From NCBI GenBank assembly GCA_947632115.1, contig CANROB010000005.1, positions 7,430-71,429 of the forward strand: a DNA stretch of 64,000 nucleotides, given 5' to 3'. Source of the stretch: an uncultured Bacilli bacterium (lineage in GTDB: Bacteria; Bacillota_I; Bacilli_A; RF39; UBA660). Under the pieces are notes generated by a model that saw only the letters and a program-made list of their open reading frames with translations, searched no databases and had not been told where the DNA came from. Every line of letters begins with the position of its first letter. Position 1 is the stretch's first letter. Shown piece after piece: positions 4,764 through 46,939 of the stretch. The position numbers and the translations under genes are program-made.

Positions 4764-4861
4764 AATGAATTCTTTCCTATTGTAGCAAATATTTTTAAGA
4801 ATTGCAACAAAAATAAAGTGGCTTTTTTAGATTTAACAAAAGAGTAGACGAAAATCTACTC

Positions 4862-5503: not shown

Positions 5504-5507
5504 AAAT

Positions 5508-5945
5508 TCACCTCGATATTATTATATCATATTTTTTTCCTAATATAGATATTTTTTGATTCATGTACTCGGCCATTTCAGAAGACTCTTTTAAAGGAAT
5601 TAATTTAATTTTTTCTTTACAATATTTACGCATGAGAGAGAATAACTCTTCTAAATCATCTAGTTCTACTAGAAGAGCCTGATAAGTAGTAAGACGAACG
5701 ATTTTATTCAAGTCTATTTGAATGGTACTTGCTTTCACTAAAATGTTTTGAAAGGTTCGATTGCGAACTAACTCATTTTGTTCAATGGCCATACTAATTT
5801 CTGTAATTCTTAAATCCTCTTTGTCATAATAAATGTCACCCTCTTTACTGCCAATTGTAAAGAATAGAGTTTCCTTTTGAAAAGTAACCTGATAAATAAA
5901 GAAAAATAAAATAACTAATGAAATAAGAAAAAGTATTTTTTTCAT
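5508..5945 (-). CDS. Secreted/membrane-anchored hypothetical protein, possibly degenerate SGNH/GDSL fold
   Basis: Signal anchor; FTIGS and ASTIQIDL segments resemble eroded GDSL blocks; no catalytic DxxH. Confidence 0.5.
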   Translation of the reverse strand: MKKILFLISLVILFFFIYQVTFQKETLFFTIGSKEGDIYYDKEDLRITEISMAIEQNELVRNRTFQNILVKASTIQIDLNKIVRLTTYQALLVELDDLEELFSLMRKYCKEKIKLIPLKESSEMAEYMNQKISILGKKYDIIISR

Positions 5946-5980
5946 AAAATCACCAAAAAAAGTAGCTTAACGCTACTTCA

Positions 5981-7234
5981 TTATATTTCTTCAATTTCTA
6001 TTTTAGCACCTACATTGGTTAATTTTTCAATAATGTTTTCATATCCCCTTAAAACATGTTCTACATTATTGATAGTCGTTTTTCCTTCTGCTTTTAAACC
6101 TGCTAAAATGAGGCAAGCTCCCGCTCTTAAATCAGTTGCTTCTACCTCACTTCCAACAAGGGAAGTAGGCCCTTTAACATAAATTTTTTTACCTACAATC
6201 TCAATATCTGCTCCCATGTCCTTTAAATAAGGAACATTTTTAAAACGATTTTCGTAGATAGTCTCTTCTAAAATAGATTCCCCCTTACACTGGGTAAGGA
6301 GGGTTGTTAGTGGCTGTTGTAAGTCTGTTGGAAAACCTGGATAACCTAGAGTTTTAACATCTACTTCTTTTAAATTTTCCCCCTTACTAATCACCACTGC
6401 ATCCTCTTCTTCTTTTATGGAAACGCCCATTTCTTTTAATTTATTAATAAGAGAATCCACATGTTCTGGAATAATATTTTCAATACGTAAATTCTCTCCT
6501 ACTAGTGCTCCTGCTATCATATAAGTTCCTGCCTCTATTCTATCAGGAATGACTTCTGTAAAACAGCTACCTAAGTAATCTACTCCGGTAATATGAATAG
6601 TACTAGTACCTGCTCCTGTTATTTTCGCTCCCATATTATTTAGGAAGGTTGCGACATTAACAATCTCTGGTTCTTTAGCAGCGTTTTCAATAATAGTTGT
6701 TCCTTTCGCTTTAACCGCTACTAAAATGGTATTTACAGTAGCCCCTACACTAGGCATATCTAGATAAACTTCTGCACCTTTTAATTCTTCCGCATCAATG
6801 ATATATTTATTTCCTTCTTCTTTAACAACTGCTCCCAAAGCACGATATCCTTTTAATGTCTGGTCAATTGGTCTAGCACCGATAGAACACCCACCTGGGA
6901 AGTACATCTCTACATGTTTATATTTACCAAGTAAAGAGGACATGAAATAGTAAGAAGCTCGTAACTTTTTAGAAATTTCTTCTGGAATCTCTTTATTGAC
7001 AATACTAGAAGAATCTATTTCCATAATGGTTCCCTTTCTGGATACTTTTGCCCCTAAATATTTTAAAATTTCATTTAAAGCATCAATATCAGAAATATTG
7101 GGAATGTTATCTATTTTTACTATTTCATCAGATAATAAAGAAGCTGGTACTAAAGCAACCGCACTGTTTTTAGCACCACTAATGCGAATAGTTCCTGTAA
7201 GAGGACATCCTCCTTCTATTCGTATTCTTTTCAT
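5981..7234 (-). CDS. murA: UDP-N-acetylglucosamine 1-carboxyvinyltransferase
   Basis: GAKNSA, PGGCSIGARP, YPGFPTDLQ, DLRAGA; start at MKRIRI with GGAGG RBS. Confidence 0.96.
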   Translation of the reverse strand: MKRIRIEGGCPLTGTIRISGAKNSAVALVPASLLSDEIVKIDNIPNISDIDALNEILKYLGAKVSRKGTIMEIDSSSIVNKEIPEEISKKLRASYYFMSSLLGKYKHVEMYFPGGCSIGARPIDQTLKGYRALGAVVKEEGNKYIIDAEELKGAEVYLDMPSVGATVNTILVAVKAKGTTIIENAAKEPEIVNVATFLNNMGAKITGAGTSTIHITGVDYLGSCFTEVIPDRIEAGTYMIAGALVGENLRIENIIPEHVDSLINKLKEMGVSIKEEEDAVVISKGENLKEVDVKTLGYPGFPTDLQQPLTTLLTQCKGESILEETIYENRFKNVPYLKDMGADIEIVGKKIYVKGPTSLVGSEVEATDLRAGACLILAGLKAEGKTTINNVEHVLRGYENIIEKLTNVGAKIEIEEI

Positions 7235-7280
7235 TCTAACCTCCAATATTACTATATGTCAATTACCTAGATGTGTTCAT

Positions 7281-8132
7281 CTAAGCCCTATCTTTTGAAC
7301 CTAGCAATTCTACTTTTGCTTCAATGGCTTCTTTGATATTTGCTTCTCCCGCTTTAATTACTTTTCTAGGATCATAGACCTCGGCATCACTACTTAATTT
7401 TTCTCTCACCCCTTTTGTCCAAGCTTGTTGTAATTCTGTGTTGATATTTAACTTACAAATTCCACAAGAAATAGCTTGTCTTATTTGTTCATCATAAATG
7501 CCACTTCCTCCATGAAGTACAAGTGGTAAATTGGTCTTTTCTTTAATTTCTTCCATTCTGTCAAAAGCAAGAACGGGATCTCCATGATATGGTCCATGGA
7601 CACTACCTAAAGCTGGCGCTAAAAAGTCTATTCCTGTACTAGCAACATACTCTACACAGTCAGATACCTCCGCATAAAGAATTCCACCTACAACGCCATC
7701 TTCTTGGCCACCAACGTGTCCGATTTCTCCTTCTACGGTAACCCCTCTTGCATGAGCATATTCTACCACTTTTTTAGATACCTCTATATTCTTCTCTAAG
7801 GTTTCTTTAGAAGCATCAATCATAACAGAAGTAAATCCAGCATCTATCGCATCTACACAAGACTCATAACTACTTGCATGATCTAAGTGAATCGCAACAG
7901 GAATCGTAATGGATAAATATTCCATTAAGTTTTTAACCATGGAAACAACGGTTTTATATCCACCCATATATTTGCCAGCGCCCTCGCTAACACCTAAAAT
8001 AACAGGCGTTTTTAACTCTTCACACTTCTCTAGAATAAAGCGTGTCCACTCTAGATTATTGATGTTAAATTGAGCTACTGCATATTTATTTGCTTTCGCA
8101 TCCAAAAGCATTCTACTCATGTTTTCTAACAT
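7281..8132 (-). CDS. fba: Fructose-1,6-bisphosphate aldolase class II
   Basis: FNINNLEW, HLDH, VEGEIG, GSVHG, LVLHGGSG, NINTE. Confidence 0.96.
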   Translation of the reverse strand: MLENMSRMLLDAKANKYAVAQFNINNLEWTRFILEKCEELKTPVILGVSEGAGKYMGGYKTVVSMVKNLMEYLSITIPVAIHLDHASSYESCVDAIDAGFTSVMIDASKETLEKNIEVSKKVVEYAHARGVTVEGEIGHVGGQEDGVVGGILYAEVSDCVEYVASTGIDFLAPALGSVHGPYHGDPVLAFDRMEEIKEKTNLPLVLHGGSGIYDEQIRQAISCGICKLNINTELQQAWTKGVREKLSSDAEVYDPRKVIKAGEANIKEAIEAKVELLGSKDRA

Positions 8133-8200
8133 ATTATCACCTAACTACAGTATAGTATTTCTCCTATAGGATTGCAATAAAATAAAAGAAGATACTAAGA

Positions 8201-8224
8201 AAACTGTCAAATATTTGACAGTTT
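8201..8224. repeat. Perfect 24-bp palindrome (terminator of mntP or operator upstream of fba)
   Basis: AAACTGTCAAAT|ATTTGACAGTTT. Confidence 0.6.
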
Positions 8225-8741
8225 AAAGATGCAAAAAAGCTAAAAGGAAGAAGAAAAATGCTCCCATAACAACTGCTATTTTTCCGAGTAAATCACGAAT
8301 CTTACTTCCTAACTTTAATCCTAAAAGCGTAAAAGAGGCACTAAAGATAGCAAAACTAATGGGCGCTATAAGCGTAAAATGAAAAAGGGCAATGCCTACT
8401 GTAAAACTATCGATACTAACCGCAAAACTAAAAAGCATTTGTTCTTTAAAAGAGGAAAGTGGGGTTACTTTTCTTTCTTCTCTTACTTCTAAAAGAAGCA
8501 TAATTCCTAAGTAAATATAGATTAAAAAGGTAATAAAATGGAAAGGTATAGATGAATAGTTTACCAAAAGGCGCTTGACACTCATTCCTAGTAATGGCAT
8601 AACAAAATGAAAAATTCCAACCATGAGGGAAATCCTTTGACACAACCTTTTTTCCATATTTAAAGTGCCATAAGCAAGAGCCAAAGAAAAGGCATCCATC
8701 GAAAGAGAAATAGATAGAAGGATTATGGTAATCATTTCCAT
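8223..8741 (-). CDS. mntP: MntP/YtaF family manganese efflux membrane protein
   Basis: SLSMDAFS and AVSIDSFTVG motifs; near spoIIR like B. subtilis ywlD. Confidence 0.8.
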   Translation of the reverse strand: MEMITIILLSISLSMDAFSLALAYGTLNMEKRLCQRISLMVGIFHFVMPLLGMSVKRLLVNYSSIPFHFITFLIYIYLGIMLLLEVREERKVTPLSSFKEQMLFSFAVSIDSFTVGIALFHFTLIAPISFAIFSASFTLLGLKLGSKIRDLLGKIAVVMGAFFFFLLAFLHL

Positions 8742-8784
8742 AAAATCACCTATATCATTTTACTAACTTGGATACCTTTTTATA

Positions 8785-9291
8785 CTAAAAATATTTTTGA
8801 ATCAAATCGACAACAAGAGAACGATATTCTACCTCATCGGTTTCCTCATCGATTAAGCAAAGGGGTGGGAATAATACGCACCACCAGTTTTTTCCAGATC
8901 CTTTCCCTAAGGTTACAACTAGTGATTCATAATATCCCTCTTCATAAAGAATTCCCTTATATTCTTTTTCAGGAAAATAATTTTTTCCATATTGAATCGT
9001 AAAATTATCGTTTCCTTGAATAGAAGAGACAATCTTAGATGCTTCTGGAATACTTTTTTCAATTACATCTCTTGCCGAATCAACGCCCTTAACATCTTTT
9101 AAAAGTTGATAATAATACTGCTCTAAGTCGGACTTAATTTCTTTTTTGATTGTTTGATCATTTGCTTGATTACTATTTCCAATGACCCGAATACGAATGG
9201 CTTCTTTAGGGATTACCTGATAATCCGTCGTAATTTTACCAATCATGAGATAAACAATCCCAATTCCTACTAGAACAAGTACTTTTTTCAT
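8785..9291 (-). CDS. spoIIR: Stage II sporulation protein R
   Basis: IRIRVIGNSN..DQ..K, FPEKEY, YESLVVTLGKGSGKNWWCVLFPPLC. Confidence 0.93.
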   Translation of the reverse strand: MKKVLVLVGIGIVYLMIGKITTDYQVIPKEAIRIRVIGNSNQANDQTIKKEIKSDLEQYYYQLLKDVKGVDSARDVIEKSIPEASKIVSSIQGNDNFTIQYGKNYFPEKEYKGILYEEGYYESLVVTLGKGSGKNWWCVLFPPLCLIDEETDEVEYRSLVVDLIQKYF

Positions 9292-9329
9292 ATCCTCACC
9301 TACTCTATATTGAGTAGATTTTTTTCATT

Positions 9330-9740
9330 TTATTCAAAAAACAATGCAAGAATAGGAAGAAAGAAACTGATAATAAGATTACAAATAAAACTAATCGTGG
9401 CAGCAATTCCCATCGCTTTTGCTGTTTTCGGTTTTGTACTAGACCAAATTCCACAGAAAATCCATCCTACTATGGGAATCAATACCGCTAAAATAACCCA
9501 ACCAACTCCCACATTTTGTTCTACAACTGGCTGCTGATAATATCCATAATAAGGTTGCTGGTAATTTGGATTGCTATAATTCATAGGCTGTTGATAGTTT
9601 GGTTGATTATAATTTGGGGGCTGTGTATAACTTTGTACATTCATCTCTTCGATATGGTCTTGATAAGGCATCCCACAATTTGCGCAGACCCTATGTTCAT
9701 CTTTCATTTCATAACCACAATTGGGACAATATTTTGCCAT
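9330..9740 (-). CDS. Zinc-ribbon membrane protein with Gln/Pro/Asn/Tyr-rich linker
   Basis: CPNCG...CANCG, NYQQP repeats, two C-terminal transmembrane helices. Confidence 0.8.
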   Translation of the reverse strand: MAKYCPNCGYEMKDEHRVCANCGMPYQDHIEEMNVQSYTQPPNYNQPNYQQPMNYSNPNYQQPYYGYYQQPVVEQNVGVGWVILAVLIPIVGWIFCGIWSSTKPKTAKAMGIAATISFICNLIISFFLPILALFFE

Positions 9741-20939: not shown

Positions 20940-22184
20940 TTATTTTTTTTCTAATATTTTAGTTACTCTAAGAGATTCCAATTGTTGAGATGGATTAATA
21001 GCTAATTGCTGAAAGCGGGTAAATGCTTCTTGCAATTCTTCTGATTTGCTAGAACAACCTGGAAAATCTACTAATTCTTCTTTTCCATTTACTTCTTTCG
21101 TTACAAAAGTAGGAAACTTTTTAGATTTTTTTAAGCAGGAGATGAGTAATAATTCTTCCTCTTTATAAAGAAATTTCTTTTCTTCAGTAGGAGTTACACT
21201 TGGAATATCTATCGCAGTATAATACTTTAATCCATTTAAGGTTGTATGGACATAGAAAGTAGAGGATTTATCCGTTTTGATATAAGTATGTCCTACATAT
21301 TCTCCTATAAATCCTTTTAAAGAATCATTATCCTCATTTTCTACGTAATCAACAACATCTTGGCGAAGCCAACTGGGAAGTCCTTGATGATTACGAATAA
21401 TTCCTTCGACAATTCGTTTTTGTTTTCGATAATTTAATAGCATATCTTGGATATTGATATCTGCATAACATTTACTCATCATAGCTTCTTCTTCACTCTT
21501 ATATTGACACCGTTTCACAAAAAATTTGGTATTTTGGGCATCTTCTTTTGGTTTCAAAGAATCATTCTCTTTAAGAAGGGGTATTACAAACATTTTCATT
21601 CCTATTAATTGATCTTGTTCCCGATAAATTTTAAGTCGTGTTCTTTCCATCGTCTCTATATCTGTTTTTTCTAATAAAGTAGTTTCCATTCTCCTAGCGC
21701 GTCCTGGATTTTTCTCATCAAATTGAAACCGTAGGCTTTGTTCTATCCGATGCATACGATCTTTACTTTGATAGGAAGAATATTTAGAAAGAAGATCTCC
21801 AGAAGCATTTAATAGAATATCTGCATACCCTATTTGTCGTTGATTCTGATCCCACATATAAATTTGAAAAGATTTTTCTTTAGAGTCCGTATATCCTTTA
21901 TAAACAGTTTGCGTAACTGCTTTATTTTCTAAAGACTGAAAAGTAATCTTTTTTGCTTCTTCACAAGTTACCTGTATCTTGACAGGCATAGAAACCAAAG
22001 AAGCATCTATATCAATGTTTTGCCAAATGCCATTGATATTTCTTTTACAAGTATAAACTTTTCCTCTAAAATTATTATGATGTTTCTCACACCCACCATT
22101 ACGACTGTTATTTCTACCTACTTCTATTTGTATTTGAAAAGGTATGATATCCGAAAAATCACTTAAAAATTGATCCATATCCAT
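20940..22184 (-). CDS. Hypothetical soluble protein, beta-rich, basic C-terminus
   Basis: ~414-aa ORF; TTGCTT-17-TATAAT promoter upstream; start set at MDMDQ after GGAG/GGGGG. Confidence 0.75.
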   Translation of the reverse strand: MDMDQFLSDFSDIIPFQIQIEVGRNNSRNGGCEKHHNNFRGKVYTCKRNINGIWQNIDIDASLVSMPVKIQVTCEEAKKITFQSLENKAVTQTVYKGYTDSKEKSFQIYMWDQNQRQIGYADILLNASGDLLSKYSSYQSKDRMHRIEQSLRFQFDEKNPGRARRMETTLLEKTDIETMERTRLKIYREQDQLIGMKMFVIPLLKENDSLKPKEDAQNTKFFVKRCQYKSEEEAMMSKCYADINIQDMLLNYRKQKRIVEGIIRNHQGLPSWLRQDVVDYVENEDNDSLKGFIGEYVGHTYIKTDKSSTFYVHTTLNGLKYYTAIDIPSVTPTEEKKFLYKEEELLLISCLKKSKKFPTFVTKEVNGKEELVDFPGCSSKSEELQEAFTRFQQLAINPSQQLESLRVTKILEKK

Positions 22185-22325
22185 AAAATTCCCCCACTCC
22201 ATAATTTTGTTATTTAGTATTGATTATATAGTTATTTTCCATAGAAAGCAAGACTTCAATGGAGAATTATCCATTCCTTTTTTAGAAAAATATGGTTATA
22301 ATAGAATTAGAAAGTATGTGATAAA

Positions 22326-23615
22326 ATGATTTTTGTTGAAAATATACCAAAAGAAGAATATGATACCTTCACAAAAAATCACCTAAAATCCCACTTTTTA
22401 CAAAGTTATGACTGGGGTGAATTTGCCAGAAGAGAAAAGAATTTTATCCCACATTATGTAGGACTTAAAGAAGATGACAAGTTAGTAGCTACTGCTTTAC
22501 TACTACAAAAAAAACTTCCTTTAGGACTTTCTTACCTATATTCTCCTAGAGGCTTCGTAGTTGATTTTCAAAATTTTGAATTGTTAAAAACGTTTACGCA
22601 AGAAATTAAAAAATTTGCTAAAAGGAAAAGAGCAATTTTTATCAAGATAGATCCAGACTTAATCATTCATCGCGAGAATTATTTGGGTGAGGAATTAAAA
22701 CCAGATTATGATAAAGAAGAAATTCTTCAAAATTTTTCTAAACTAGGATTTAAACATCAAGGGTTTACAAAAAACTTTGAAACCATGCAACCAAGATATT
22801 CTTTTCGTGTGGATATGACACAATCTATGGAAGAAATTTACGATAAATTTTCTAAAACGACTAAACAGCGGATTAAAAAAGCAGAAGATTTACAAGTAGA
22901 AGTTTCTATGGGAACAAAAGAAGATTTAAAAGAATTTTTTACTCTCATGAAATTAACCGAAAATAGAAAAGACTTTGTCTCACATGATTTATCTTATTAT
23001 GAAACTTTATATGATTTATTCCATAGTCAAGATAAATGTAATCTATTTCTTGGTAAAGTAAATGTTGAAAAAATACTCCTACAAAAGAAAAAGGAAAAGG
23101 AACCTATTCAAAAAGAATATGAGGAATTATTAGCAGTTGAAAATCGCAGTAAATCACAAAACTCTAAATTAAAAGAATTAGAAAGAAGATTATCCAAATT
23201 AGAAGAAGATATTGTAAAGTTTAGCGACACAAAACAAAAATATGGAACGGAAATTACTTTATCTGGACACTTTATTATTGAATATGGAAATAAAGCATGG
23301 GTTTTATATGCCGGAAATCATAACATTTTATCAGATACTTATACCAATTACAAAACCTACTATGAACATTTTAAATTCTATCATAACCGCGTTTCTATCT
23401 ATGATCAATTCGGTACTATAGGGGATTTAAGAGAAGAAAATCCACTCCTTGGCCTTCATGAATTTAAAAAGAAATTTGGTGGAGATTACGTAGAATTTAT
23501 TGGAGAATTTAACTTAATTACAAAACCTATCTTTTACTTTGCTTTTCAAAAATTAGTTCCTTTTTATCGCAATCACATAAAAAGAAAAGCTAAAAAGAAT
23601 AATACGGTACAATAA
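22326..23615 (+). CDS. FemABX/MurM family peptidoglycan bridge aminoacyltransferase
   Basis: HFLQS..W, YSPRG, KIDP, QPRY, coiled-coil insert, YDQFG, GLHEFKKKFGG. Confidence 0.92.
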   Translation: MIFVENIPKEEYDTFTKNHLKSHFLQSYDWGEFARREKNFIPHYVGLKEDDKLVATALLLQKKLPLGLSYLYSPRGFVVDFQNFELLKTFTQEIKKFAKRKRAIFIKIDPDLIIHRENYLGEELKPDYDKEEILQNFSKLGFKHQGFTKNFETMQPRYSFRVDMTQSMEEIYDKFSKTTKQRIKKAEDLQVEVSMGTKEDLKEFFTLMKLTENRKDFVSHDLSYYETLYDLFHSQDKCNLFLGKVNVEKILLQKKKEKEPIQKEYEELLAVENRSKSQNSKLKELERRLSKLEEDIVKFSDTKQKYGTEITLSGHFIIEYGNKAWVLYAGNHNILSDTYTNYKTYYEHFKFYHNRVSIYDQFGTIGDLREENPLLGLHEFKKKFGGDYVEFIGEFNLITKPIFYFAFQKLVPFYRNHIKRKAKKNNTVQ

Positions 23616-23642
23616 AAACAAGCAATCATTTTGCTTGTTTTT
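23614..23642. terminator. Bidirectional intrinsic terminator
   Basis: AAAAACAAGCAA-TCATT-TTGCTTGTTTTT between convergent genes. Confidence 0.85.
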
Positions 23643-23659
23643 ATAAACTCTAAATAAAA

Positions 23660-23848
23660 TTACCTATAATATACTTTTTGAATACTTTCTTTTTTTTCAT
23701 CATCTAATCTTTCTTCCCCTTTTTGATAGGCTTCATCTAAACTTTTACTTATGTCATTTAATTTATTTAAGATATCTCTTTCGTAGGATGATAATTCTTG
23801 CTCTTTCTCTTGATTCGTATCTTCTTGGTTAATCATCTTATCCATCAT
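23660..23848 (-). CDS. Small acidic helical protein translationally coupled to the 1329-aa gene
   Basis: ATGA overlap with upstream stop; GGGAGG RBS; 62 aa. Confidence 0.6.
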   Translation of the reverse strand: MMDKMINQEDTNQEKEQELSSYERDILNKLNDISKSLDEAYQKGEERLDDEKKESIQKVYYR

Positions 23849-26800
23849 GCCATTACCCTCCCTTGCATTTCAATTTCCTCTGTTTGGCTATACTGTGAAT
23901 TTATCAAGTTTTTGCATATCGTTTTAAATTGATGTTTATCATAAGCTTCATAACTTCTATGTAACAATTCTGCTATAGATATTAATTTTTTAGAAGTACT
24001 CATATTTAAATGTTTAGCCACTAATTTATCATTAGGGTTTCCTATTCTATTATTTTCAAGAGTAATGGCATCTTTTAAACACATACATATTTTTTTTGCT
24101 TTTTCAAAGTCAGAGTTATCTATACCATACTTTTGACAAATTTTATCCAATCTATAATCGCTTTCAGCACTAAAAGCATAGGATACCACTGCTTGCATTA
24201 ATCGAATGTCCTCATCACTATATCCCTCTTGTTCAAGGAATGGAACCATTTTAGTAGCACTATTACTACCAACTCGAACATCTGCTGTTTTATTGACTTT
24301 AGCACACTCACAATATTTCGTGCATTGTAATAATAAATCAAAACTATGGATATCCAATTTTCCATTTTCATTTAGTTCTTCTTGCCCAATTTTACTTGAT
24401 AAAAACAACATTCTTTCCACATGTTCTATATCTTTATATAACCCTGTACTAGCAAGATTAGATATTTGTTTTCCAAGAAAAGAAATATCTGTCTCATGCA
24501 ACACTTTCGATAAAGGAAGATCTGGGGTTTCTGCTTGATATATATTGTAAATGTTTTCTAATTTAGGGATATCTACTCGATTTACCTGAGGATTTATAGT
24601 ATTCATCAATATGTCCTCATATTCATCAACAGGAATATCAATATAATTTTGTCTTTCACTAGTTTCCATGTCAACTTTAAATTTATTATTTTCTTTATCT
24701 AAAATATCCATCAATTTACTACTATAGTGATAATACGATGCAACATCGCCAATTTCTTGATATCGAATTTGTAATTCCTTCATGATTTCATTCATAATAT
24801 TTTCAATTTTATTAGTTGGAAAATACATTTCTAACCAATCTGGATTTGTCATGCGCAATCCACTACGATTATTTTCATGTGATAATAGAATTTTTTCTAA
24901 TAACTCCAATTTAGTATCTAAAGAACTTGCTGAATGAAAATCATTTATTTTTTGATCAATCTCATCTCTTTCATGTTCCACAATTTTCTCTTTATCAATA
25001 TATACAATTGGAATTTTCATATCTTCAGAACATTTTATTGCTTTTTGTTTGATTTCATCTTTCATATCACTATAAACAATAACATAGCTAGGCTGAATAT
25101 TTTCACATATAGGGGTTCTTTTATCATCACGTATTTCAAATCGTTCTAGCGTTTGTTCATTATGCGTATGTCTTGTATAATCAATAATATCTTGTGCAGA
25201 CATAAAAGTTAGTGGTCTACCTTCTTGAATATCATAACCATCATTAAATGTATATAAATCATATGGAGCTGATTTCGTTAATGCTTTTGGATCCCAACTA
25301 TCAAAACCAAATAAAACATCTTTTACTTCTGCCATACCCATATTGTTATTAGCTATTAAAGAACAACAGATTCCGTGATTGCTCTTTCTCTCACTCTTAT
25401 TCCAAGAATCAAAATAATTATTATTAATTAATGTTAATTCACCATAAGCACAGGTACTATGTATTAACATTTTAAAATCATATCCAGCTTCGTATACTAA
25501 AACCTGTTTTACTTTTTTTTCTCCATTTTCCGTTACAACAAAGTCTCTATAATGTGGTTTATTATCAACATAGTTTCCATTTTCATCTTTTATTTTATTT
25601 GTTACTTTATAAACACTATCGGATATATTTTTACTATATAATTGACGCAATGATTGATCTATATAAGCAATTTCATCAAAAGTTAATGGTTCCATATTAA
25701 GAGTGTCATAACTTTGTTTAATAGTATCTAATTTTTCAATATTTAGTATTCTTCTTATCTGTTCAACATACTTTACCTGTAATTCATATTGAGTATCCTT
25801 AGCAAATTCTTTCATAGAAGTTCCAAACATTCTAACAATTTCACATGCTTCTTCTATATTAATGCTAAAATATTTATTTAAATAAGCATTTTTAGCTTTG
25901 TTTAAATCACGATTTTGAATAGCTTCGTCAAATGATTCATCACAAAGTTTTAATCTTCTTTCTTTATAATTGTTTAAATCTTCTATAGAATTTATTTCAG
26001 GAATAATATTTAAAGTAGGGTCAATTTCATCTTTTGAACTCTCTTCAATACTATTATAATATAAACTAACTTCTCTAAAACCTATTTCGGTTAACACTTC
26101 CCATTGTTCAAGTGTTAACGATGTTAAATCTATCTTTTTTTCCTTTTTAATCTTCGATAGCCGATATCCTTTATTTGGAGTAGAACTATGATTTAATTCT
26201 GCAGCCCTAGATACAAATAAAGCTAAATCCATTTTATCTGCATATTTTGAATTATTAATGACTTTTATAATATTTTCAAAGATAACATGATCGCCATTTG
26301 GTCCATACTCTAGCGCAATCTGACTGGCTAACTCTGGATAACGACTCATTTTTTCTACAAAATTAAATCCCAAATCTAAAAAATCATCTGTTAGCAATGA
26401 AAAAGTTAAAGTCCTAGCTACATAAGGATTCTTTTCATATAATCTCTTAGCAAATTCATATTTATCATGGCGAAAAGGTCCTTTAAGAGAAGCAAAATCA
26501 TTTGGATAATATTCTTCATTCCACTCATTAATAATTCTATAAAAAAATCTTTTATCAAAAAGCAATTCCGTGGCAACTTCTATTGGCAATTTAGGATCTT
26601 TTAAAAGGCTCTCTAATTGTTGTTGCGAAATGGTATTCCTTATTTGTGGATGTTTAATAATAGCTACTTTGTCCATCACAGGAATTTCTGGGGTTTGGAA
26701 GAATTCAATTAAATAATTTCCAAAAGAGTCTTGAGGTATCATTTTTCTTATTCTTTCATCATCTAATAATTCAATTTTTTCATTGGACTTCAAGTATTTA

Positions 26801-27834
26801 CATTCAAGAATATCTGCTATAGACCCAATTTCTAATTTAGAAAATATACGATTATCAAATAAAATATCTTTTAGAGTTGAAAAATCTATTTTTGTATCTC
26901 TAAAAATAACCCCTAATTCTCTCCAAGTTATTTTTTCTAACACTTTTTCATGAAATATTACTTTTTTTAAATCATCGCTCGATAATTTTGTATTCGATAA
27001 AAAATAACCAAGAGATAAATTTTCAAAAAGATAATCATTATGAATAAATCTCATGCAATCTTCATACGATTCACATAAACTTCCAACTAATGTAGAATAA
27101 GAATATCCCTTTATTTTTTCCATAATATTAGGACGCATAAGCATTTCTATCTTTTGCTCTTTTGAAAAAATATTTGAATTAATAATTTTCTCTAAACAAA
27201 CATTATTGGCAAATGACAATATCTCATCATTTTCCAATAAAGAATTTTTGAAGGCTTGAGAATAATTTTCACCTTCAAAAACGCTCTCAAGAATCCAGCC
27301 AAAAATACTATTACCCATATTTAAGGAACTATTAGTTGGGATTATCGTTTGAATATAAGAATTTAAAAAATTCATTAATATTTTCTCATCATTGCCATGC
27401 TTAATTAAATTTCCTAATATAGTATGTTGTTCCCGAAAGGTCATAGTAAATTCTTCGTTACTTAATAATTGATTATAAAAAGAATAATCTTCATCAAGAA
27501 AATCTAAAAAGCAATTGATAAGTGATACAAAATCCGTTGTAAGTTCAATATGATTATCATAAATAAAGTCTTGGTTCATGCGATTTAAAATTTCATACAT
27601 TGTACTTCTAGGTATATTACTTAGCACATCATCAATAACTTTTTGCAGGAATTCTTCTAATTTTTTTTCAATTTCAGCTTTTCCTTGATTCACTTGTTCT
27701 TCTAATTCTATGTCATCAATTAAATCTAGTTCTTCATAACGCTTTTGTAACTCTAGAACTTCTTCGCTTTCTAATCCTTTGTGAATTTGTTCTATAGAAT
27801 CCTTTAATAGTTTACTAATTTCTGCATCATTCAT
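23845..27834 (-). CDS. Large multidomain protein: helical repeats + ADP-ribosyltransferase-like domain + degenerate HD domain
   Basis: AGGAG RBS; ~33-aa repeats at aa ~190-430; MLIH...CCSLI...HNEQTL pattern; C-terminal HVERML...CLKDAITLENNR pseudo-HD. The ORF is solid; domain calls are inference. Confidence 0.6.
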   Translation of the reverse strand: MNDAEISKLLKDSIEQIHKGLESEEVLELQKRYEELDLIDDIELEEQVNQGKAEIEKKLEEFLQKVIDDVLSNIPRSTMYEILNRMNQDFIYDNHIELTTDFVSLINCFLDFLDEDYSFYNQLLSNEEFTMTFREQHTILGNLIKHGNDEKILMNFLNSYIQTIIPTNSSLNMGNSIFGWILESVFEGENYSQAFKNSLLENDEILSFANNVCLEKIINSNIFSKEQKIEMLMRPNIMEKIKGYSYSTLVGSLCESYEDCMRFIHNDYLFENLSLGYFLSNTKLSSDDLKKVIFHEKVLEKITWRELGVIFRDTKIDFSTLKDILFDNRIFSKLEIGSIADILECKYLKSNEKIELLDDERIRKMIPQDSFGNYLIEFFQTPEIPVMDKVAIIKHPQIRNTISQQQLESLLKDPKLPIEVATELLFDKRFFYRIINEWNEEYYPNDFASLKGPFRHDKYEFAKRLYEKNPYVARTLTFSLLTDDFLDLGFNFVEKMSRYPELASQIALEYGPNGDHVIFENIIKVINNSKYADKMDLALFVSRAAELNHSSTPNKGYRLSKIKKEKKIDLTSLTLEQWEVLTEIGFREVSLYYNSIEESSKDEIDPTLNIIPEINSIEDLNNYKERRLKLCDESFDEAIQNRDLNKAKNAYLNKYFSINIEEACEIVRMFGTSMKEFAKDTQYELQVKYVEQIRRILNIEKLDTIKQSYDTLNMEPLTFDEIAYIDQSLRQLYSKNISDSVYKVTNKIKDENGNYVDNKPHYRDFVVTENGEKKVKQVLVYEAGYDFKMLIHSTCAYGELTLINNNYFDSWNKSERKSNHGICCSLIANNNMGMAEVKDVLFGFDSWDPKALTKSAPYDLYTFNDGYDIQEGRPLTFMSAQDIIDYTRHTHNEQTLERFEIRDDKRTPICENIQPSYVIVYSDMKDEIKQKAIKCSEDMKIPIVYIDKEKIVEHERDEIDQKINDFHSASSLDTKLELLEKILLSHENNRSGLRMTNPDWLEMYFPTNKIENIMNEIMKELQIRYQEIGDVASYYHYSSKLMDILDKENNKFKVDMETSERQNYIDIPVDEYEDILMNTINPQVNRVDIPKLENIYNIYQAETPDLPLSKVLHETDISFLGKQISNLASTGLYKDIEHVERMLFLSSKIGQEELNENGKLDIHSFDLLLQCTKYCECAKVNKTADVRVGSNSATKMVPFLEQEGYSDEDIRLMQAVVSYAFSAESDYRLDKICQKYGIDNSDFEKAKKICMCLKDAITLENNRIGNPNDKLVAKHLNMSTSKKLISIAELLHRSYEAYDKHQFKTICKNLINSQYSQTEEIEMQGRVMA

Positions 27835-27846
27835 ACAATTTCTCCT

Positions 27847-28713
27847 TTAAGAATCTATAGATAAATAATGATTTACTATATTTTCTTTTTCTAATTTTAG
27901 TATATCAATATATTCTTGACGTTTCATTCTGGAAGAACGATAGGTAATATTATCCAAGGTAGATAACGAAAGTGTCCCATTAGAAAGTCCAAATTTTTTC
28001 TCAAATTCTTTCCTTTCATATTCTTTCATCTGCTTACTTTGCAAATAAGGTAAAGTATCTAGAAAGGTATCAAAAGAATCATTTAAAAGGAGTTCTACAT
28101 TATCTTTCTCTTTTAAAAGAAAGTAACAACTGCGAATAATCGTGCGGTTGCCCAAGCATTTAGGCAAATAGAACAACTGATTATCTCTTGCAAAAATTCT
28201 GGTTTGAACTTCAACTAATATTTTATGAATACTAAAACCAACTTCTTCTTGATATTCCCCATATTCATCTTGATAACTAATTATTTTATTAGATTTTAAA
28301 GACATTATTTTTTGTATATAGGCATACAAAAACTCACTTTTTATAAATTCTATAAAATCAATGTTCTTATCTTGAATAATTTGAGAGACTTCATCCTCAG
28401 AAAAATAACTATAATAATAATTTTCATATTTTCCAAGGATACTTTTGTGATGATTAACCATTTTATTTGCTAAGCGGTTGTACTGATTAGTTCCACTAGG
28501 AATAGATACAATAAACCGATTTAATTTTTTATTATATTCCATAAAAGAATTTTGTTTTTGATTACTCAAAGAAAAATCTTGATTAAAATTAATTTCTATT
28601 AAAGACTCATCATGCAATTGATAAAAATATCGTTTCATTTTGTCTTTAATATCTTCATAATAAGCATACAAAATCTTTAAAAGCGATTCATAACTTGGTA
28701 TATTATTATCCAT
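27847..28713 (-). CDS. Hypothetical protein, possible inactive zincin-like fold
   Basis: EFLYAYIQKI where HExxH would be expected, followed by GFSIHKILVEVQTR resembling an eroded G..LNEGxxE; start ATG 28713 (alternative GTG 28722). Confidence 0.55.
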   Translation of the reverse strand: MDNNIPSYESLLKILYAYYEDIKDKMKRYFYQLHDESLIEINFNQDFSLSNQKQNSFMEYNKKLNRFIVSIPSGTNQYNRLANKMVNHHKSILGKYENYYYSYFSEDEVSQIIQDKNIDFIEFIKSEFLYAYIQKIMSLKSNKIISYQDEYGEYQEEVGFSIHKILVEVQTRIFARDNQLFYLPKCLGNRTIIRSCYFLLKEKDNVELLLNDSFDTFLDTLPYLQSKQMKEYERKEFEKKFGLSNGTLSLSTLDNITYRSSRMKRQEYIDILKLEKENIVNHYLSIDS

Positions 28714-28802
28714 GATTAACACCTTACTATCCTTAAAATGATTATATCATATCAAGGAAAAAAAGACTATATTCCTACTTTATGCGACAAGGAAAAGGCC
28801 TC

Positions 28803-28828
28803 AAAAAAAAGAACTAATTCTAGTTCTT
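28803..28828 (-). terminator. Terminator after the metallophosphoesterase gene
   Basis: AAGAACTA-GAAT-TAGTTCTT followed by a T run. Confidence 0.7.
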
Positions 28829-28833
28829 AATAA

Positions 28834-29730
28834 TTAATACCGCTTTTTACCACTCATATTCGTAAACCTTTGAATAGTGGAATCTGGTGAATCACTACTT
28901 AAAATATTATATTCCATTTTTTCTCGGTCAAATCTAACCAATACCTCTTCTAAATCATAATCATTTTCTTTTTCTGTTAAAACAACATAAGAAGCTGTAT
29001 CGATTGGATCATGTCGATAAGCCATTCCAACAGCGCGTATAGAATAAAATTTTGTCTTTGTTTCTTCATCGTATAACTTCCAGTGGACATGTCCTTGAAT
29101 GACGGCATCAAAAAAATCGACTCTTTTTTTTGCAAATAAAGGATTATCCCTAGCAGATAAATAACCTCTTACAAAGGGAGAATCTACTCCATATTTTTCT
29201 ATTTGTCTTTCTATTTCATCTAGTTGCTCTAAACTATTTGTATATTGAAACTGATTAGAAGCATTATTTATCACTTGCTTGCCATCGTTTAAATCATCAA
29301 AATAACTTTGATAACTCCAAGTACTTCTTTCATCAAAATCAATTCTAACATCATTCGCAAAATGACAAAGCGCTAAATGCTTTCCACCTATTAAAAGTTC
29401 AATAGATTTCGGATAAGCACTAATCACGCCAATCTGTTCTTCATTTAATTTAGAAAGTGTCCAAAGATAACTTTTTTGTTTAGTAGCATGAAAATAAGAA
29501 CGAAATGGTTCCGTACCTAAAAGAACATACTCTTCTGAATTTCCAGCTACTGATTTTACTCCATATTCTTCTAATAAATCAATTACCTCTTTAGGATTAG
29601 GGCCTAATCCAATATTGTCTCCTAAAGAATAAATTTCAGTAATGCCTCTTTTTTGAATATCCTCTAAAGCAGCTTGTGTTGGTTCTAATAAGGCATGAGC
29701 ATCTGTAAATATAGCAATTTTTCTACCCAT
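28834..29730 (-). CDS. Calcineurin-like metallophosphoesterase
   Basis: TDAH, LGDNIG, AGNSE, LCH, GHVH motifs. Confidence 0.88.
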   Translation of the reverse strand: MGRKIAIFTDAHALLEPTQAALEDIQKRGITEIYSLGDNIGLGPNPKEVIDLLEEYGVKSVAGNSEEYVLLGTEPFRSYFHATKQKSYLWTLSKLNEEQIGVISAYPKSIELLIGGKHLALCHFANDVRIDFDERSTWSYQSYFDDLNDGKQVINNASNQFQYTNSLEQLDEIERQIEKYGVDSPFVRGYLSARDNPLFAKKRVDFFDAVIQGHVHWKLYDEETKTKFYSIRAVGMAYRHDPIDTASYVVLTEKENDYDLEEVLVRFDREKMEYNILSSDSPDSTIQRFTNMSGKKRY

Positions 29731-30610
29731 AAAACCACCTCTTCTTCTCTATTTTTTTGATAACCATCTTAATCATCATACGATTTTGTTCAAACTTTTT
29801 TAACATTTCTTCACGAATTTTAGGATTCATTGGTGCATGAATTCTTTTTTCTACTCTTTGAAAAACATTTTCTAAATTTTCCTCTTCAATAATCCATAAT
29901 TTTGATTCAAAAAATTGAATATCCGAAGAGGAACAAGTTCGTAAATATTTCTCTAAAAAATTTGCTTTTTCATACATTTCAGTAGGAACGAAGAAATAAT
30001 CTTCTCGATCAATTCCTAAACTATATCCCCCTAACTCAATAGAGGTGTTATTAAGCATCCATTCATTATCTAAAAGGGGCGAAAAAGAAACATTTTTCCC
30101 TTTTTCTACTAAAAATAAATTATCAGAATGACGATCAATATTTCCAATTAAAACATCAAAGAAAAATATTTGTATCAATTGATTCATTAAAGCATCTACA
30201 ATACTAATTCTTCGATATTTTTTCATAAATGCTACTTTAATATCTCGAAAGTTATTAGTCTTAGCTAAATCTACGCCTTTTTGAGAAGCAAATTCTTCAA
30301 CTAATACATCTCCTAAACGGTAAAATTTCTCTTCTTTTTGAAAAATATCCTCACTGATAAAACCTAATTCACGGTGAGAAGAAGCTAAATCATAATGAGC
30401 ACAAGGAATTCCATAATCGCGCGCTAATTCCTCCGCTACTAATTCATGATAGCAACCACTTACAAAACGAGCTTGCCGATAAAAATATTTTTTTCCTTGA
30501 TAAAGAAAGGAAAACTGTGACTGATACGGAGTATCCAAGAAATTATCTAGAGAAATATATCCATCCTTTTCACGATATTCTTCCACAAAAACACCTACTT
30601 TTTTTCTCAT
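29723..30610 (-). CDS. HipA/CtkA-like (PI3K-like fold) protein kinase
   Basis: YHELVAEELA..YGIPCAHY, FDVLIGNIDRHSDN, SPLLDNE. Confidence 0.82.
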   Translation of the reverse strand: MRKKVGVFVEEYREKDGYISLDNFLDTPYQSQFSFLYQGKKYFYRQARFVSGCYHELVAEELARDYGIPCAHYDLASSHRELGFISEDIFQKEEKFYRLGDVLVEEFASQKGVDLAKTNNFRDIKVAFMKKYRRISIVDALMNQLIQIFFFDVLIGNIDRHSDNLFLVEKGKNVSFSPLLDNEWMLNNTSIELGGYSLGIDREDYFFVPTEMYEKANFLEKYLRTCSSSDIQFFESKLWIIEEENLENVFQRVEKRIHAPMNPKIREEMLKKFEQNRMMIKMVIKKIEKKRWFYG

Positions 30611-30699: not shown

Positions 30700-32400
30700 C
30701 TAGTTTTTACTAATTTTGAAAATAACTTGATATTCATTCTCTAAATCATACTCTTCGGTATCAATAGAATATCCACATTTTTCAATAGTATCATTAACTT
30801 GACGAATCAAATTAATAATTTCTTTAAAATCCAATCTTTGCGCTGGTTGAGCGGATGGAGGTAAAACAGGATCGTATTGTTTTGAATAATCTGTAATGAT
30901 AATTGGTTGAATATCTGTTTTTTCTTCCTTTAGAGAATCGTTTGCTGGTGGCGTATCTACTACTGGTGTTGGTTGAACTGGTTCTGGTGTTTCTGATACC
31001 TTAGGTTCCTCTTTCACTTCTGCAAAAGAACTTGGTAAATTGTTTTCTATGATTGGTGTAGATGGAATAGCAGAAATATCTGGTATAGATGGTATAGAAG
31101 GTACCTCTGGATTAAGAGATGGTACTTCTGGAATAATTGGCATAGCAGGATCACTAGATGATTCTACTGGTTCATTTTCTGGTATTACTGGAGTCACAGG
31201 TTCTAAAGATGGAGCTGGAACTACTGGTGTTTCCTCAACAGGAGTTGGTTCTATAGAAACCGTATCAAAAGGAGATGGAACTTTTGGTTCCTCTGGTGCC
31301 TTGTTTTCCACTTCTTGAGATACTGTTGGCATCGTTGGTGCAAGTAAATCTTGAAAATTAAATGGCTTTTGTTCTGTCTGGCCTGGTGTAGGCTCTTGTG
31401 TTGGTTCTTCACTAGTTGGTTTTACTTCAACAGAACCATTTTCAAGATTTGGAACTGGAGGAACTAAATTCTCCATACTAGAAGGTATTACAATATTTGG
31501 TATAACAGGAGCTTCTATTTTTTCCATAGAAGAACTTTCTTCTCCTACCATAGAATTTGATACAGGAGTTGGATTTTCCACAATTGGTGTGGATGGAATT
31601 CCACTAAAATCTACATTTGGAGTCTCACTAATTGGAGTAGCTGGAGCTAAAAGAGAATTAAAATCTACTGTTTTAGGTTGTTCAACGACATCTTGTGCCT
31701 CTTGTTGTTCCTTTTCTACATTCATAAATCCAGGAGTAGAAGTTACCCCTCCTGCTGGATTTGTATCATTATCATCGATTGGATCTGTAATAAAAGTTCC
31801 CATTTTCTCTATTTCCTCCTCCGTCTTTCGAACAGTTAACCTATTCTCAATAATTTTCTTTAACATTTCTCTTTGCTGAGAAGCTGCTTTTAACTTCAAT
31901 AAAGATCTTGCATGTCTTTCAGAAATTTTATCTTCCATCAAAGCTTCTTGAACTTCATCACAAAGATTTAAAAGTCTAATTTTATTCGCTATAGAAGATT
32001 GACTTTTACCAAGTTTAATTGCTAACTGTTCTTGTGTTAAATACCCCATATCTAAAATCTTTTTATAGGAAATAGCTTCCTCGATTGGAGTTAAATCTCT
32101 TCTTTGAACATTTTCAATTAATGCAACCTCTGCGCTATCTTTATCATTAAAACTAGATATAATAGCAGGAATGGTATCTTTTCCAGCTAAAACACTTGCT
32201 TTATATCTTCGTTCTCCGGCTATAATTTCGTACTTGTCACCTATCGGACGTACGATAATTGGTTGAATGACGCCATGTTCTTTGATGGATTCAGATAGTT
32301 CAATAATAGAATCTTCATTGAACTTAATACGTGGCTGAAACCGGTTTGGTAAGATGTCGTTTAAATCTAAATCTACTACTTTAGATCTCGTCTCGTCCAT
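30700..32400 (-). CDS. noc: Nucleoid occlusion protein Noc-like (ParB family CTPase) with long Pro/Glu-rich insert
   Basis: PNRFQPR, IAGERR, ENVQR; HTH GKSQSSIANKIRLL...ERHAR (Noc-type Q/K/R residues); Noc-like C-terminal INLIRQ...DTEEYDLENEYQVIFKI; downstream of rsmG. Confidence 0.8.
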   Translation of the reverse strand: MDETRSKVVDLDLNDILPNRFQPRIKFNEDSIIELSESIKEHGVIQPIIVRPIGDKYEIIAGERRYKASVLAGKDTIPAIISSFNDKDSAEVALIENVQRRDLTPIEEAISYKKILDMGYLTQEQLAIKLGKSQSSIANKIRLLNLCDEVQEALMEDKISERHARSLLKLKAASQQREMLKKIIENRLTVRKTEEEIEKMGTFITDPIDDNDTNPAGGVTSTPGFMNVEKEQQEAQDVVEQPKTVDFNSLLAPATPISETPNVDFSGIPSTPIVENPTPVSNSMVGEESSSMEKIEAPVIPNIVIPSSMENLVPPVPNLENGSVEVKPTSEEPTQEPTPGQTEQKPFNFQDLLAPTMPTVSQEVENKAPEEPKVPSPFDTVSIEPTPVEETPVVPAPSLEPVTPVIPENEPVESSSDPAMPIIPEVPSLNPEVPSIPSIPDISAIPSTPIIENNLPSSFAEVKEEPKVSETPEPVQPTPVVDTPPANDSLKEEKTDIQPIIITDYSKQYDPVLPPSAQPAQRLDFKEIINLIRQVNDTIEKCGYSIDTEEYDLENEYQVIFKISKN

Positions 32401-44549: not shown

Positions 44550-44879
44550 CTAACGGTATACATTTAAATTGTTTAGGGCCTCTAACAAATTATCCCGCAT
44601 TTCTGAATAATTACGCATTAGAATTCCCTTGCCTAATATTATAATACAATTAAAGTTTTTTTGATAGTCTTTTTCTTGTAGAATAGAACGGATTTGCCTT
44701 TTTAATTTATTCCGAGTGACGGCATTTCCTAATTTCTTACTAACAGAGATTCCAAAATGGTATTCCCCTACTTCCGTTCTTTCTATATAAATAATATAAT
44801 CTTTGTATTTATATGGTTGATTATGATGAATAATTCGTTGAAAATCACGATTATTTTTGACAATATTTTTTTTCTTCAT
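44550..44879 (-). CDS. rnpA: Ribonuclease P protein component
   Basis: FGISVSKKLGNAVTRNKLKRQIR. Confidence 0.95.
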   Translation of the reverse strand: MKKKNIVKNNRDFQRIIHHNQPYKYKDYIIYIERTEVGEYHFGISVSKKLGNAVTRNKLKRQIRSILQEKDYQKNFNCIIILGKGILMRNYSEMRDNLLEALNNLNVYR

Positions 44880-44900
44880 ATTTTCCCGTCCCTCAATAAG

Positions 44901-44924
44901 AAAAAAACCACTGACGAACAGTGG
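44901..44924 (-). terminator. Terminator between rpmH and rnpA
   Basis: CCACTG-TTCGT-CAGTGG followed by T7. Confidence 0.75.
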
Positions 44925-44928
44925 ATAT

Positions 44929-45051
44929 TTAATGAGATAATACTTTGCGCCCTTTTTTTCTTCTATTATTTATAATTTTAGTTTCCATACGAGCGAAAAA
45001 ACCCATTTTTTTACTTCTTCTATGATTATTTGGTTGATAAGTTCTTTTCAT
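44929..45051 (-). CDS. rpmH: 50S ribosomal protein L34 (40 aa)
   Basis: Translated by hand: [40 protein letters not shown]; GGAGG RBS; canonical position; below ORF-track cutoff. Confidence 0.93.
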
Positions 45052-45180
45052 TTTTCACACCTCCGATTATTCTATTTCCCTGCTTGCTTTTTCAATTATA
45101 TAGATTTTTTTTCTATTTGTCAAACCTTTTCTTCTCAATAGTTAGGAAAATCAAAAAATAAAATAAGAATAAAAATAAAG

Positions 45181-45380
45181 TTATGCACATTTTTTTCTAG
45201 TTAAAAATTCTATTTAAAGTCCACTTATGCACACTTATGCACAAAATTGTGCACAAATTATATACCGAATGCATGTTTTTGTCTATAATAAAGTCACAAA
45301 AATGTGCATAACTATGTTTTAAGAAGAAAAATAAAATAGGGGAGATGTTGATAAAAAAGAAACTTTAAATTTTATGCACA
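45181..45380. other. oriC, DnaA-box cluster upstream of dnaA
   Basis: TTATGCACA at 45181, 45225, 45235, 45372 and reverse at 45303; TTGTGCACA at 45247; gene strand switches here. Confidence 0.88.
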
Positions 45381-45447
45381 TTTTCTTTTTTTTTTATGTC
45401 AAATAGTGTAGAATATAGGTAGAAATGGTTAAGAGTGGGGTGATTGC

Positions 45448-46800: not shown

Positions 46801-46920
46801 AAAATGTTCATAAAATGTTCATAAGAAAAAATTATGCACACTGAATTTTTCCTTATAAATAAAGAATAAAAGGAGTTATGCACAGAAATGCACACCTATA
46901 ATAAAAATAATATTATTTAG
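46781..46920. other. oriC, dnaA-dnaN region with DnaA boxes, trio-like repeats and AT-rich unwinding element
   Basis: TTATCAACA 46781; two TGTTCATAA; TTATGCACA 46832 and 46876; then AAATGCACA-CC-TATAATAAAAATAATATTATTTAG. Confidence 0.82.
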
Positions 46921-46939
46921 AATAAGAAAAGAGGTACTT

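Follow-up and report, generated by a model that had tools for sequence, protein, structure and literature searches.

A predicted ADP-ribosyltransferase-like core and a degenerate HD domain in a 1329-residue protein of an uncultured Bacilli bacterium, member of a large unannotated protein family

What could be the function of an operon whose products match no named system? The question is raised by a 64,000-nucleotide stretch of an uncultured Bacilli bacterium (assembly GCA_947632115.1, contig CANROB010000005.1, positions 7,430 to 71,429; hereafter the window, in which position 1 is the first letter), where the minus strand carries three co-directional open reading frames (ORFs) of 288, 1329 and 62 codons, bounded by an extended −10 box at one end and a strong terminator at the other. 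A preliminary description, made from the letters alone, had read the 1329-residue product as a repeat protein with an ADP-ribosyltransferase (ART)-like region and a dead HD domain, acting either as an intracellular anti-phage sensor-effector or as a translocated toxin. The analysis reported here assigns this protein to a family that is large, lacks annotation and consists of big cytoplasmic proteins from gut Bacillota. From its predicted fold, it is best described as part of a new branch within the ART-fold superfamily that has no annotation and whose architecture is also new, the operon copy being a variant with a dead HD domain and a partner protein of its own.

Searches with the three products returned no nameable family. 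Pfam, PADLOC, NCBIfam and PHROGs gave zero significant matches, in agreement with the statement of the preliminary description that no named system has this architecture. PADLOC-DB 2.0 held nothing at E ≤ 1, and searches of the PDB sequences with the large protein and with the profiles A1, A5 and A2 gave nothing below E 0.17. Only weak leads were obtained from the ESM Atlas, for the core of the large protein (0.91; DUF5846 on 10–25% of members) and for the 288-residue partner. A description of the family was not found in the searches made of an open-access library, which does not show that none exists.

The fold of the conserved centre of the large protein was evaluated with structure prediction. 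A model of residues 735–965, built from 40 sequences including remote relatives, had a predicted local distance difference test score (pLDDT) of 92.7 and a predicted template modeling score (pTM) of 0.89. This model was compared with 48,161 representative chains employing VIA-align, which is independent of Foldseek. A Z-score of 2 or more was reached by only 10 chains, nine of which are of the ART superfamily. CteC with bound nicotinamide adenine dinucleotide (NAD+) came first (8ux2; Z 7.9, root mean square deviation 3.7, 147 residues aligned), followed by four entries of DarT (7omv, 7yk3, 7omu and 8baq; Z 3.0–4.2), two of Tpt1 (7yw4 and 7yw2; Z 3.8 and 3.2), a Salmonella NAD-binding effector that we take to be SopF (7dn9; Z 2.1) and AvrPphF ORF2 (1s21; Z 2.0). 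The count of nine includes the last two, which presumably have ART folds; the remaining chain, 2gfq (Z 2.0), is an unrelated protein. Re-alignment over the 631 top chains of Foldseek gave Z 4.1–4.4 for DarT and 6.7–8.0 for four CteC entries. A larger 511-residue model of residues 600–1110, built from 37 sequences (pLDDT 89.1, pTM 0.86), independently matched CteC at Z 7.7. As the list of matches is almost purely of ART fold and the top chain lies 3.5 Z units above the rest, we consider it likely that residues ~741–949 (positions 24988–25614, minus strand) adopt an ART-like fold, an assignment that comes from structure prediction and not from sequence. A match of the 511-residue model to Legionella SdeC was rejected as a sign of relation to mono-ADP-ribosyltransferases (mARTs), since it covers helical parts (chain residues 1150–1358).

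The active-site positions were followed in the model and in the family alignment. The earlier proposal rested on a histidine, a serine and a glutamate spaced as in ART-fold effectors, within motif strings that were found at residues 787–920. In the predicted fold this spacing holds, with the histidine at the end of strand 1, the serine inside strand 2 and the glutamate at the start of strand 5, although no sequence profile matches. Strand 1 (residues 54–59 of the core model) ends in H792-S793 and is followed by a helix (73–79). The strand at 87–94 is immediately preceded by H820-G821 and contains C823-C824-S825. Strands at 107–110 and 118–122 come before D859, and a helix (146–152) before the strand at 159–163 that starts with E893. 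In the model, H792, S825 and E893 are thus in the canonical order of the three ART motifs. PMC10810742 gives R65, S97 and E220 for CteC together with an essential D134 that binds the nicotinamide ribose. Judged by strand order and spacing, H792, S825, D859 and E893 would take the places of these CteC residues R65, S97, D134 and E220, respectively. E893 would then serve as the Glu of catalysis, and D859 would, like its CteC counterpart, be an additional acid that binds the ribose.

Conservation was counted over 200 aligned core-domain matches. Both acids, D859 and E893, are kept in all 200. R898, W811, F844 and P915 are kept in 199, Y797 and C823 in 198, G821 in 195, H820 in 194, and R888 and N892 in 193. 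Of the three residues originally singled out, the glutamate is therefore fully conserved and the serine largely so (S825, 177/200), while the histidine is not invariant (H792, 159/200), being T in 20 matches, Q in 8, N in 6 and S in 5. Residue 824 is C or T across the family, so that the strand-2 motif reads C-[CT]-S. The ART-like core of the 1329-residue protein contains H792, Y797, H820-G821, C823-C824-S825, F844, D859, E893 and E897-R898.

CteC, a Chromobacterium violaceum mART of the ARTC class (8ux2, 8hte, 8htf and 8htc; ~140–148 residues aligned), is the best structural match of the core. By spacing, the two would share a polar residue on strand 1, a small-residue motif on strand 2, an acid ~35–40 residues further on and a glutamate on strand 5. 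Identity is only 10–12%, and a sequence-level match is absent. Strand 1 carries Arg in CteC but His (or T/Q/N/S) here, strand 2 has C-[C/T]-S after an invariant H-G, and the four-helix ubiquitin-binding insertion of CteC is absent from the family. CteC is a small secreted effector, whereas the present domain is embedded in a 1329-residue cytoplasmic protein of a commensal. The next structural neighbors, DarT and the RNA 2'-phosphotransferase Tpt1/KptA, are ART-fold enzymes acting on nucleic acids; the large protein is six times larger than these and carries repeats and an HD domain in addition.

Several results weigh against an NAD+-using ART. According to the note that accompanies the aligner, a Z-score of 7.9 can also be attained by a model that has no true relative, and Foldseek found no match at E ≤ 1e-3 in the PDB with either model, nor in BFVD. 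None of 18 core sequences matched a Pfam ART family even at E ≤ 10, and profile searches of the PDB sequences gave nothing. The mapping onto CteC follows strand order and spacing and is not a residue-level superposition. The strand-1 His is swapped for T, Q, N or S in 39 of the 200 matches, and the invariant C823 and H820-G821 are non-standard for ARTs and could indicate a different chemistry. Since the invariant H-G, Cys and Arg are foreign to standard ARTs, a rival chemistry has to be weighed, in which the ART-like scaffold performs another reaction, or binds a ligand, via H820-G821, C823, D859, E893 and R898 with no NAD+-dependent transfer. A thiol-dependent hydrolase or transferase and a 2'-phosphotransferase-like RNA enzyme would be examples. 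Consistent with this, C823, H820 and R898 are all better kept than the canonical strand-1 His, sequence-level matches to ART families are lacking and the structural matches that follow CteC are the nucleic-acid-directed DarT and Tpt1. Against it, the only structural neighbors are ART-superfamily enzymes, all of which use NAD+, and E893 lies exactly at the position of the strand-5 catalytic Glu in the model. The strand-2 C-[CT]-S moreover resembles the S-T-S motif of ART enzymes of the R-S-E type. We regard such a different chemistry as unlikely.

The extent of the family was determined by searching a core profile made from 18 sequences against 1.84 billion representatives. At a threshold of E ≤ 1e-3 this gave 1085 representatives, of which 879 also passed E ≤ 1e-10 and 431 passed E ≤ 1e-30, with lengths spanning 169 to 3725 residues among the 150 best listed members. 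A Pfam scan of 28 representatives found HD in four (one of which, P0172, also has DUF4116), a transglutaminase-like domain in one and nothing in 23. Within the same order, the core was present in 33 of 251 sampled genomes (24 of 110 genera) with at most three matches per genome. Of 19 other genomes of the same genus, eight gave matches to the full-length query, as many as five in a single genome. The family is patchily distributed and often occurs in several copies. Close to the query, a word-indexed search found 60 homolog clusters, mostly of 1310–1410 residues, with 26–55% identity to the 1329-residue query when its own cluster is excluded.

An alignment of 20 sequences of the large protein (positions 23845–27834, minus strand) shows a variable N-terminal half, a conserved centre at residues ~600–1010, a helical stretch and a C-terminal HD domain. 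The repeats named in the preliminary description are real: when the profile of residues 150–480 was aligned with itself in hhalign, matches were displaced from the diagonal by ~32 residues (98% probability, E 5e-14), and the N-terminal half therefore holds an array of ~32-residue helical repeats at residues ~180–430 (positions 26545–27297, minus strand). DUF4116 (PF13475) was matched by P0172 above the Pfam cut-off (29.3 bits) and by relative L019 below it (15.2 bits); the 1329-residue protein had no match. The region common to the protein and its remote relatives is a module of helical lobe, ART-like core and helical bundle at residues 600–1110 (positions 24505–26037, minus strand), which would be the conserved engine of the family. 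The variable repeats may recognize a target or a signal.

The C-terminal residues 1134–1300 (positions 23935–24435, minus strand) form an HD-like domain in which the metal-ligand residues are replaced. The family signature is HNIGHIERV...KYHDCGR...EYHE...KDADALDR, and the 1329-residue protein has KYCECAK, SYAF and KDAITLEN at three of these sites. CE stands in place of HD, Ala in place of the third His, and Ile and Glu in place of two of the three DADALD aspartates. A hidden Markov model of the family HD gave 101 matches in 92 of 201 core-bearing proteins, and the pattern H/HD/H/D-D-D is kept in 79 of the 101 matches, compared with H/CE/A/D-I-E in the operon copy. As had been proposed, this HD phosphohydrolase domain is confirmed as dead by the catalytic residues that its sequence has lost. 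PF01966 (HD) has no match in the protein and NCBIfam gave nothing for the HD segments. Among relatives, HD was found in 6 of 60 clusters (precomputed), in four of four remote loci and in the four Pfam-scanned representatives mentioned above. Further lineages with a degenerate HD are P0048/49/51, P0064, P0114 and P0127. The same genome holds a second member of the family on another contig (C4), a 1400-residue ORF that is 37% identical over residues 567–1313, with its HD intact and no partner gene. This paralog (locus L067, 6409–10611, minus strand) adjoins a low-molecular-weight tyrosine phosphatase and an ABC transporter, and a nucleoside-deoxyribosyltransferase-like/NUDIX fusion lies nearby.

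The commonest full architecture of the family, an ART fold and an HD-type phosphohydrolase in one chain, has its nearest analogue in the SidE family of Legionella. In SidE enzymes a single polypeptide holds both an mART and an HD-related phosphodiesterase (PDE), and the legend to figure 1A of PMC6941232 compares the SidE PDE with a classical HD domain. The two are distinguished by absence of sequence similarity, by the dead HD of the operon copy and by organisms that are not intracellular pathogens. The domain order differs as well, being ART then HD here and PDE then mART in SidE. The HD of relatives, found in about half of those sampled, could process the ADP-ribose product. The loss of the HD metal ligands in the operon copy means that only the transferase step could remain there. 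A more far-reaching version is a new two-step NAD+-dependent class of modifying enzymes in commensal gut Bacillota, in which the ART, with its unusual H/C-[CT]-S/D/E site, would ADP-ribosylate a target and the fused HD would cleave the pyrophosphate to leave a phosphoribosyl mark or cross-link. HD-dead copies like the present one, each with a partner of its own, would be specialised variants whose reaction ends at ADP-ribosylation. Such a mark would be of a kind so far known only from the SidE effectors. We consider this version rather improbable at present.

Several giant relatives have the module at the extreme C-terminus. P0097 (2996 residues) has its core at 2684–2892, an HEFGH motif and hydrophobic segments; P0080 (3725 residues) carries a transglutaminase-like domain. 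In L055 (positions 4160–9700 of that locus, 1846 residues) the module is near the C-terminus, and a TraG-type coupling protein and an AAA ATPase are neighbors. These giants are reminiscent of the polyvalent proteins of conjugative elements, which according to PMC5512222 often carry ARTs with His in strand 1 and often contain ART and zincin domains. The likeness lies in the pairing of the module with an HExxH or transglutaminase-like domain and in the one TraG-type neighbor, the polyvalent proteins combining an ART of the Tox-ART-HYD2 clade with zincin peptidases. The polyvalent-protein ART has H-Y-D where the present family has H/x, C-[CT]-S and E, and the operon gene lies in the chromosome and has no neighbors from mobile elements. 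It could still be that the large protein is a delivered effector or toxin, exported or transferred like polyvalent or polymorphic-toxin proteins and not acting in the cytoplasm of its producer. The C-terminal modules of P0097 and P0080, the coupling protein beside L055 and the secreted nature of CteC would fit. The 1329-residue protein itself, however, has its core in an internal position and no signal peptide, membrane helix or recognizable delivery domain, and its gene is surrounded by housekeeping genes near the chromosomal origin, conjugation and phage genes being absent from the parts of the window scanned. We consider delivery improbable.

The signals around the operon agree with those first described: the own extended −10 box, the ATGA overlap and the terminator were all confirmed on the sequence, as were the three ORFs. 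The box, TGATATAAT, at positions 28741–28749 (minus strand), was read directly from the sequence and is a putative promoter. It is missing from a generic consensus promoter scan because its −35 is poor; the scan was uninformative overall (72 sites compared with 57.5 ± 7.8 in shuffles). An expression look-up listed no RNA holder for the operon. A hairpin with a U8 run after the upstream metallophosphatase gene (28803–28828, minus strand; 8-bp stem, −6.8 kcal/mol, z −1.1) is a weak terminator, and may, weakly, separate the unit from that gene. The 288-codon gene (27847–28713, minus strand) is of no known family and starts at the ATG at 28713 behind AAGGTG; the ORF list instead gives 291 residues from a GTG (27847–28722). 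AGGAG precedes the ATG of the 1329-codon gene. The ATG of the 62-codon ORF (23660–23848, minus strand) overlaps the TGA of the large gene as ATGA, with GGGAGG 8 nt upstream, an arrangement by which the small ORF is, from its sequence, translationally coupled to the large gene. The unit ends at an intrinsic terminator hairpin with A and U runs on either side (23612–23644, minus strand; 14-bp stem, −14.5 kcal/mol, z −4.2), which is shared between the end of the small ORF and the convergent FemAB gene.

The maxima of Kyte-Doolittle hydropathy in any 19-residue window were 1.05, 0.70 and −0.53 in the 288-, 1329- and 62-residue proteins, respectively, and no membrane helix is predicted in any of them. 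The low maximum of the large protein agrees with the earlier statement that it lacks a signal peptide and membrane helix, and supports a cytoplasmic location. The 62-residue product is acidic, as described, with an isoelectric point of 4.57 and 17 D+E compared with 11 K+R.

Co-conservation of the two smaller genes with the large one was found in part. In each of the four close full-length loci (L001–L004; tblastn), the gene immediately upstream of the large one encodes a homolog of the 288-residue partner (30–33% identity), but no homolog was found by tblastn in the remote-relative loci examined or at the C4 paralog. As the partner is lacking from all remote members examined, it is not part of the core machinery. 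It has no match in Pfam, PADLOC, NCBIfam, PHROGs or the PDB. The partner C-terminus is a strong membrane helix in L002, L003 and L004 (Kyte-Doolittle 3.2–3.5) that is absent in the operon copy and in L001. A partner profile matched only one of the 251 genomes of the same order, namely the host genome of the operon; the other members of the close clade accordingly belong to different lineages, suggesting that the unit was acquired horizontally. Word-based homolog searches with the partner gave two clusters from the single sequence and six from the profile, and say little about its range since even the L002–L004 forms were missed. A predicted complex of the partner with residues 1–600 of the large protein (score 0.13, mark 0.32) speaks neither for nor against binding. 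Genes for nucleoside 2-deoxyribosyltransferase-like and type I phosphodiesterase/nucleotide pyrophosphatase proteins lie near the pair in L002 (11200–12312), L003 (5399–5878) and L004 (4395–5962); a functional link of this nucleotide/ADP-ribose-type metabolism to the pair is possible from their position.

The small ORF is less constant than the partner. Its sole counterpart is a 65-residue ORF coupled through TAATG in L001, to which similarity is marginal (14 of 41 positions identical, pairwise E 4e-5), and it is absent in L002, L003 and L004. Both loci that have a small ORF, the operon and L001, are those in which the partner lacks the membrane helix. A conserved role of the 62-residue protein as inhibitor or chaperone, as had been suggested, is weak because the ORF is missing from three of the four close loci. 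The same observations bear on a toxin-antitoxin-like module, in which the 62- or the 288-residue protein would neutralize the large enzyme until a trigger arrives. The ATGA coupling and strong Shine-Dalgarno site argue that the small ORF is co-translated, the coupled ORF of L001 stands at the same place, and the structural neighbor DarT is the toxin of a two-gene toxin-antitoxin pair and works in phage defence. The Z-scores to DarT are low, however, and a DarG-like macrodomain gene is not adjacent. A conserved adjacent antidote as in DarTG was not found: neither small protein resembles a macrodomain or known antitoxin, both match no family, and neither is conserved family-wide, the partner being absent beside the C4 paralog and in all remote relatives examined. 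This arrangement carries only a small probability in our judgment.

That the operon copy is a decaying functionless duplicate, with the dead HD as the first sign of erosion, would fit the HD ligands kept in the C4 paralog but lost here and the low GC content of the region, yet it is very improbable given a frame open for 1329 codons, the retention of every invariant core residue, a 90% cluster of six member sequences for the large protein and a 97%-identical cluster of seven for the partner, and the recurrence of HD degeneration in the intact lineages listed above, which suggests a tolerated state.

The window covers the origin region of the chromosome, with dnaA and dnaN at 45.4–48.1 kb, a GC skew that changes sign near 45 kb, and mnmE, mnmG, rsmG and parB also close to the origin. 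In detail, 44553–48058 holds rnpA and yidC on the minus strand, and dnaA (45448–46797) and dnaN on the plus strand. The operon is placed between the FemAB and metallophosphatase genes (23615–28834). In a congener whose uvrB is 93% identical (G001), FemAB is followed directly by the phosphatase and then by ParB, with no operon, HipA-like kinase or 420-residue ORF; in another (G015), the same spot is occupied by an unrelated 1336-residue protein of no family and a 94-residue ORF on the other strand. The site separating FemAB from the phosphatase is therefore variable and accommodates different giant genes. GC content is 27–28% over the unit (24–30 kb) compared with 32–34% in the flanking bins, and other stretches of the window are equally low.

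An anti-phage sensor-effector or translocated toxin, as the preliminary description had it, finds only indirect backing, in the patchy distribution of the family and the variable insertion spot. The accessory, patchy and hotspot-borne character suggests a conflict role, in defence or as a toxin, rather than a housekeeping one; as no known defence-system model matches, this is a role that we infer. Against it, most neighbors of homologs are housekeeping genes, apart from the TraG-type protein next to L055 and the serine recombinases next to L041. The Pfam scan and the homolog neighborhoods showed no nearby gene for a macrodomain, an ARH or any other obvious antidote, and none of the three proteins matches a PADLOC model.

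Other genes in the vicinity were characterized as follows. A HipA-like kinase gene (29723–30610, minus strand) overlaps the calcineurin-like metallophosphatase gene (28834–29730) by 8 nt, and its product matches the PADLOC candidate PDC-M03A (7e-20) and phrog_8728. Membership of this pair in the three-gene unit was rejected in view of the intervening hairpin and the putative separate promoter; neither gene is found near homologs, and G001 has the phosphatase without the operon. Between uvrB and FemAB lies a 420-residue ORF (20940–22202, minus strand) with no match in the family libraries, where G001 has a family-less ORF of 251 residues. ParB (30700–32400, minus strand; N-terminal and helix-turn-helix domains at residues 8–200) is extended by an unusually long segment of ~350 residues, in which Pro, Glu, Ser, Thr and Val are abundant. 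Homologs of SpoIIR and ComK (8788–9291 and 48170–48622) are present despite a genome of only 1.45 Mb.

Taken as a whole, the operon would be read as an accessory conflict unit built on an NAD+-using ART-fold transferase module, with the repeats serving in recognition, a reading to which we give an even chance. The ART-fold domain would most likely bind NAD+ and transfer ADP-ribose to a macromolecular target. The large gene, its clade-specific 288-residue partner and the small coupled ORF would form an accessory unit that entered the chromosome at a variable site. The anatomy, the predicted fold, the conservation of residues, the distribution and the synteny are shown by the data; the use of NAD+, the target, the sensor role of the repeats and the conflict role are inferred.

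In the conflicts of bacteria with phages and with their hosts, ADP-ribosyltransferases play a central part, both as weapons and as regulators. The family described here comprises more than 1000 representative clusters that are invisible to Pfam, NCBIfam, PHROGs and PADLOC, with members mostly of 1000–3700 residues from gut bacteria. It seems to conceal an ART-fold engine whose active-site pattern is unusual and to which an HD phosphohydrolase is often fused. Should the domain be active, it would constitute a new branch of the ART superfamily and would provide the first functional handle on a block of 'dark' giant proteins in gut Bacillota. The copies with a live and a dead HD in this one genome would then be a natural pair for dissecting the HD step.

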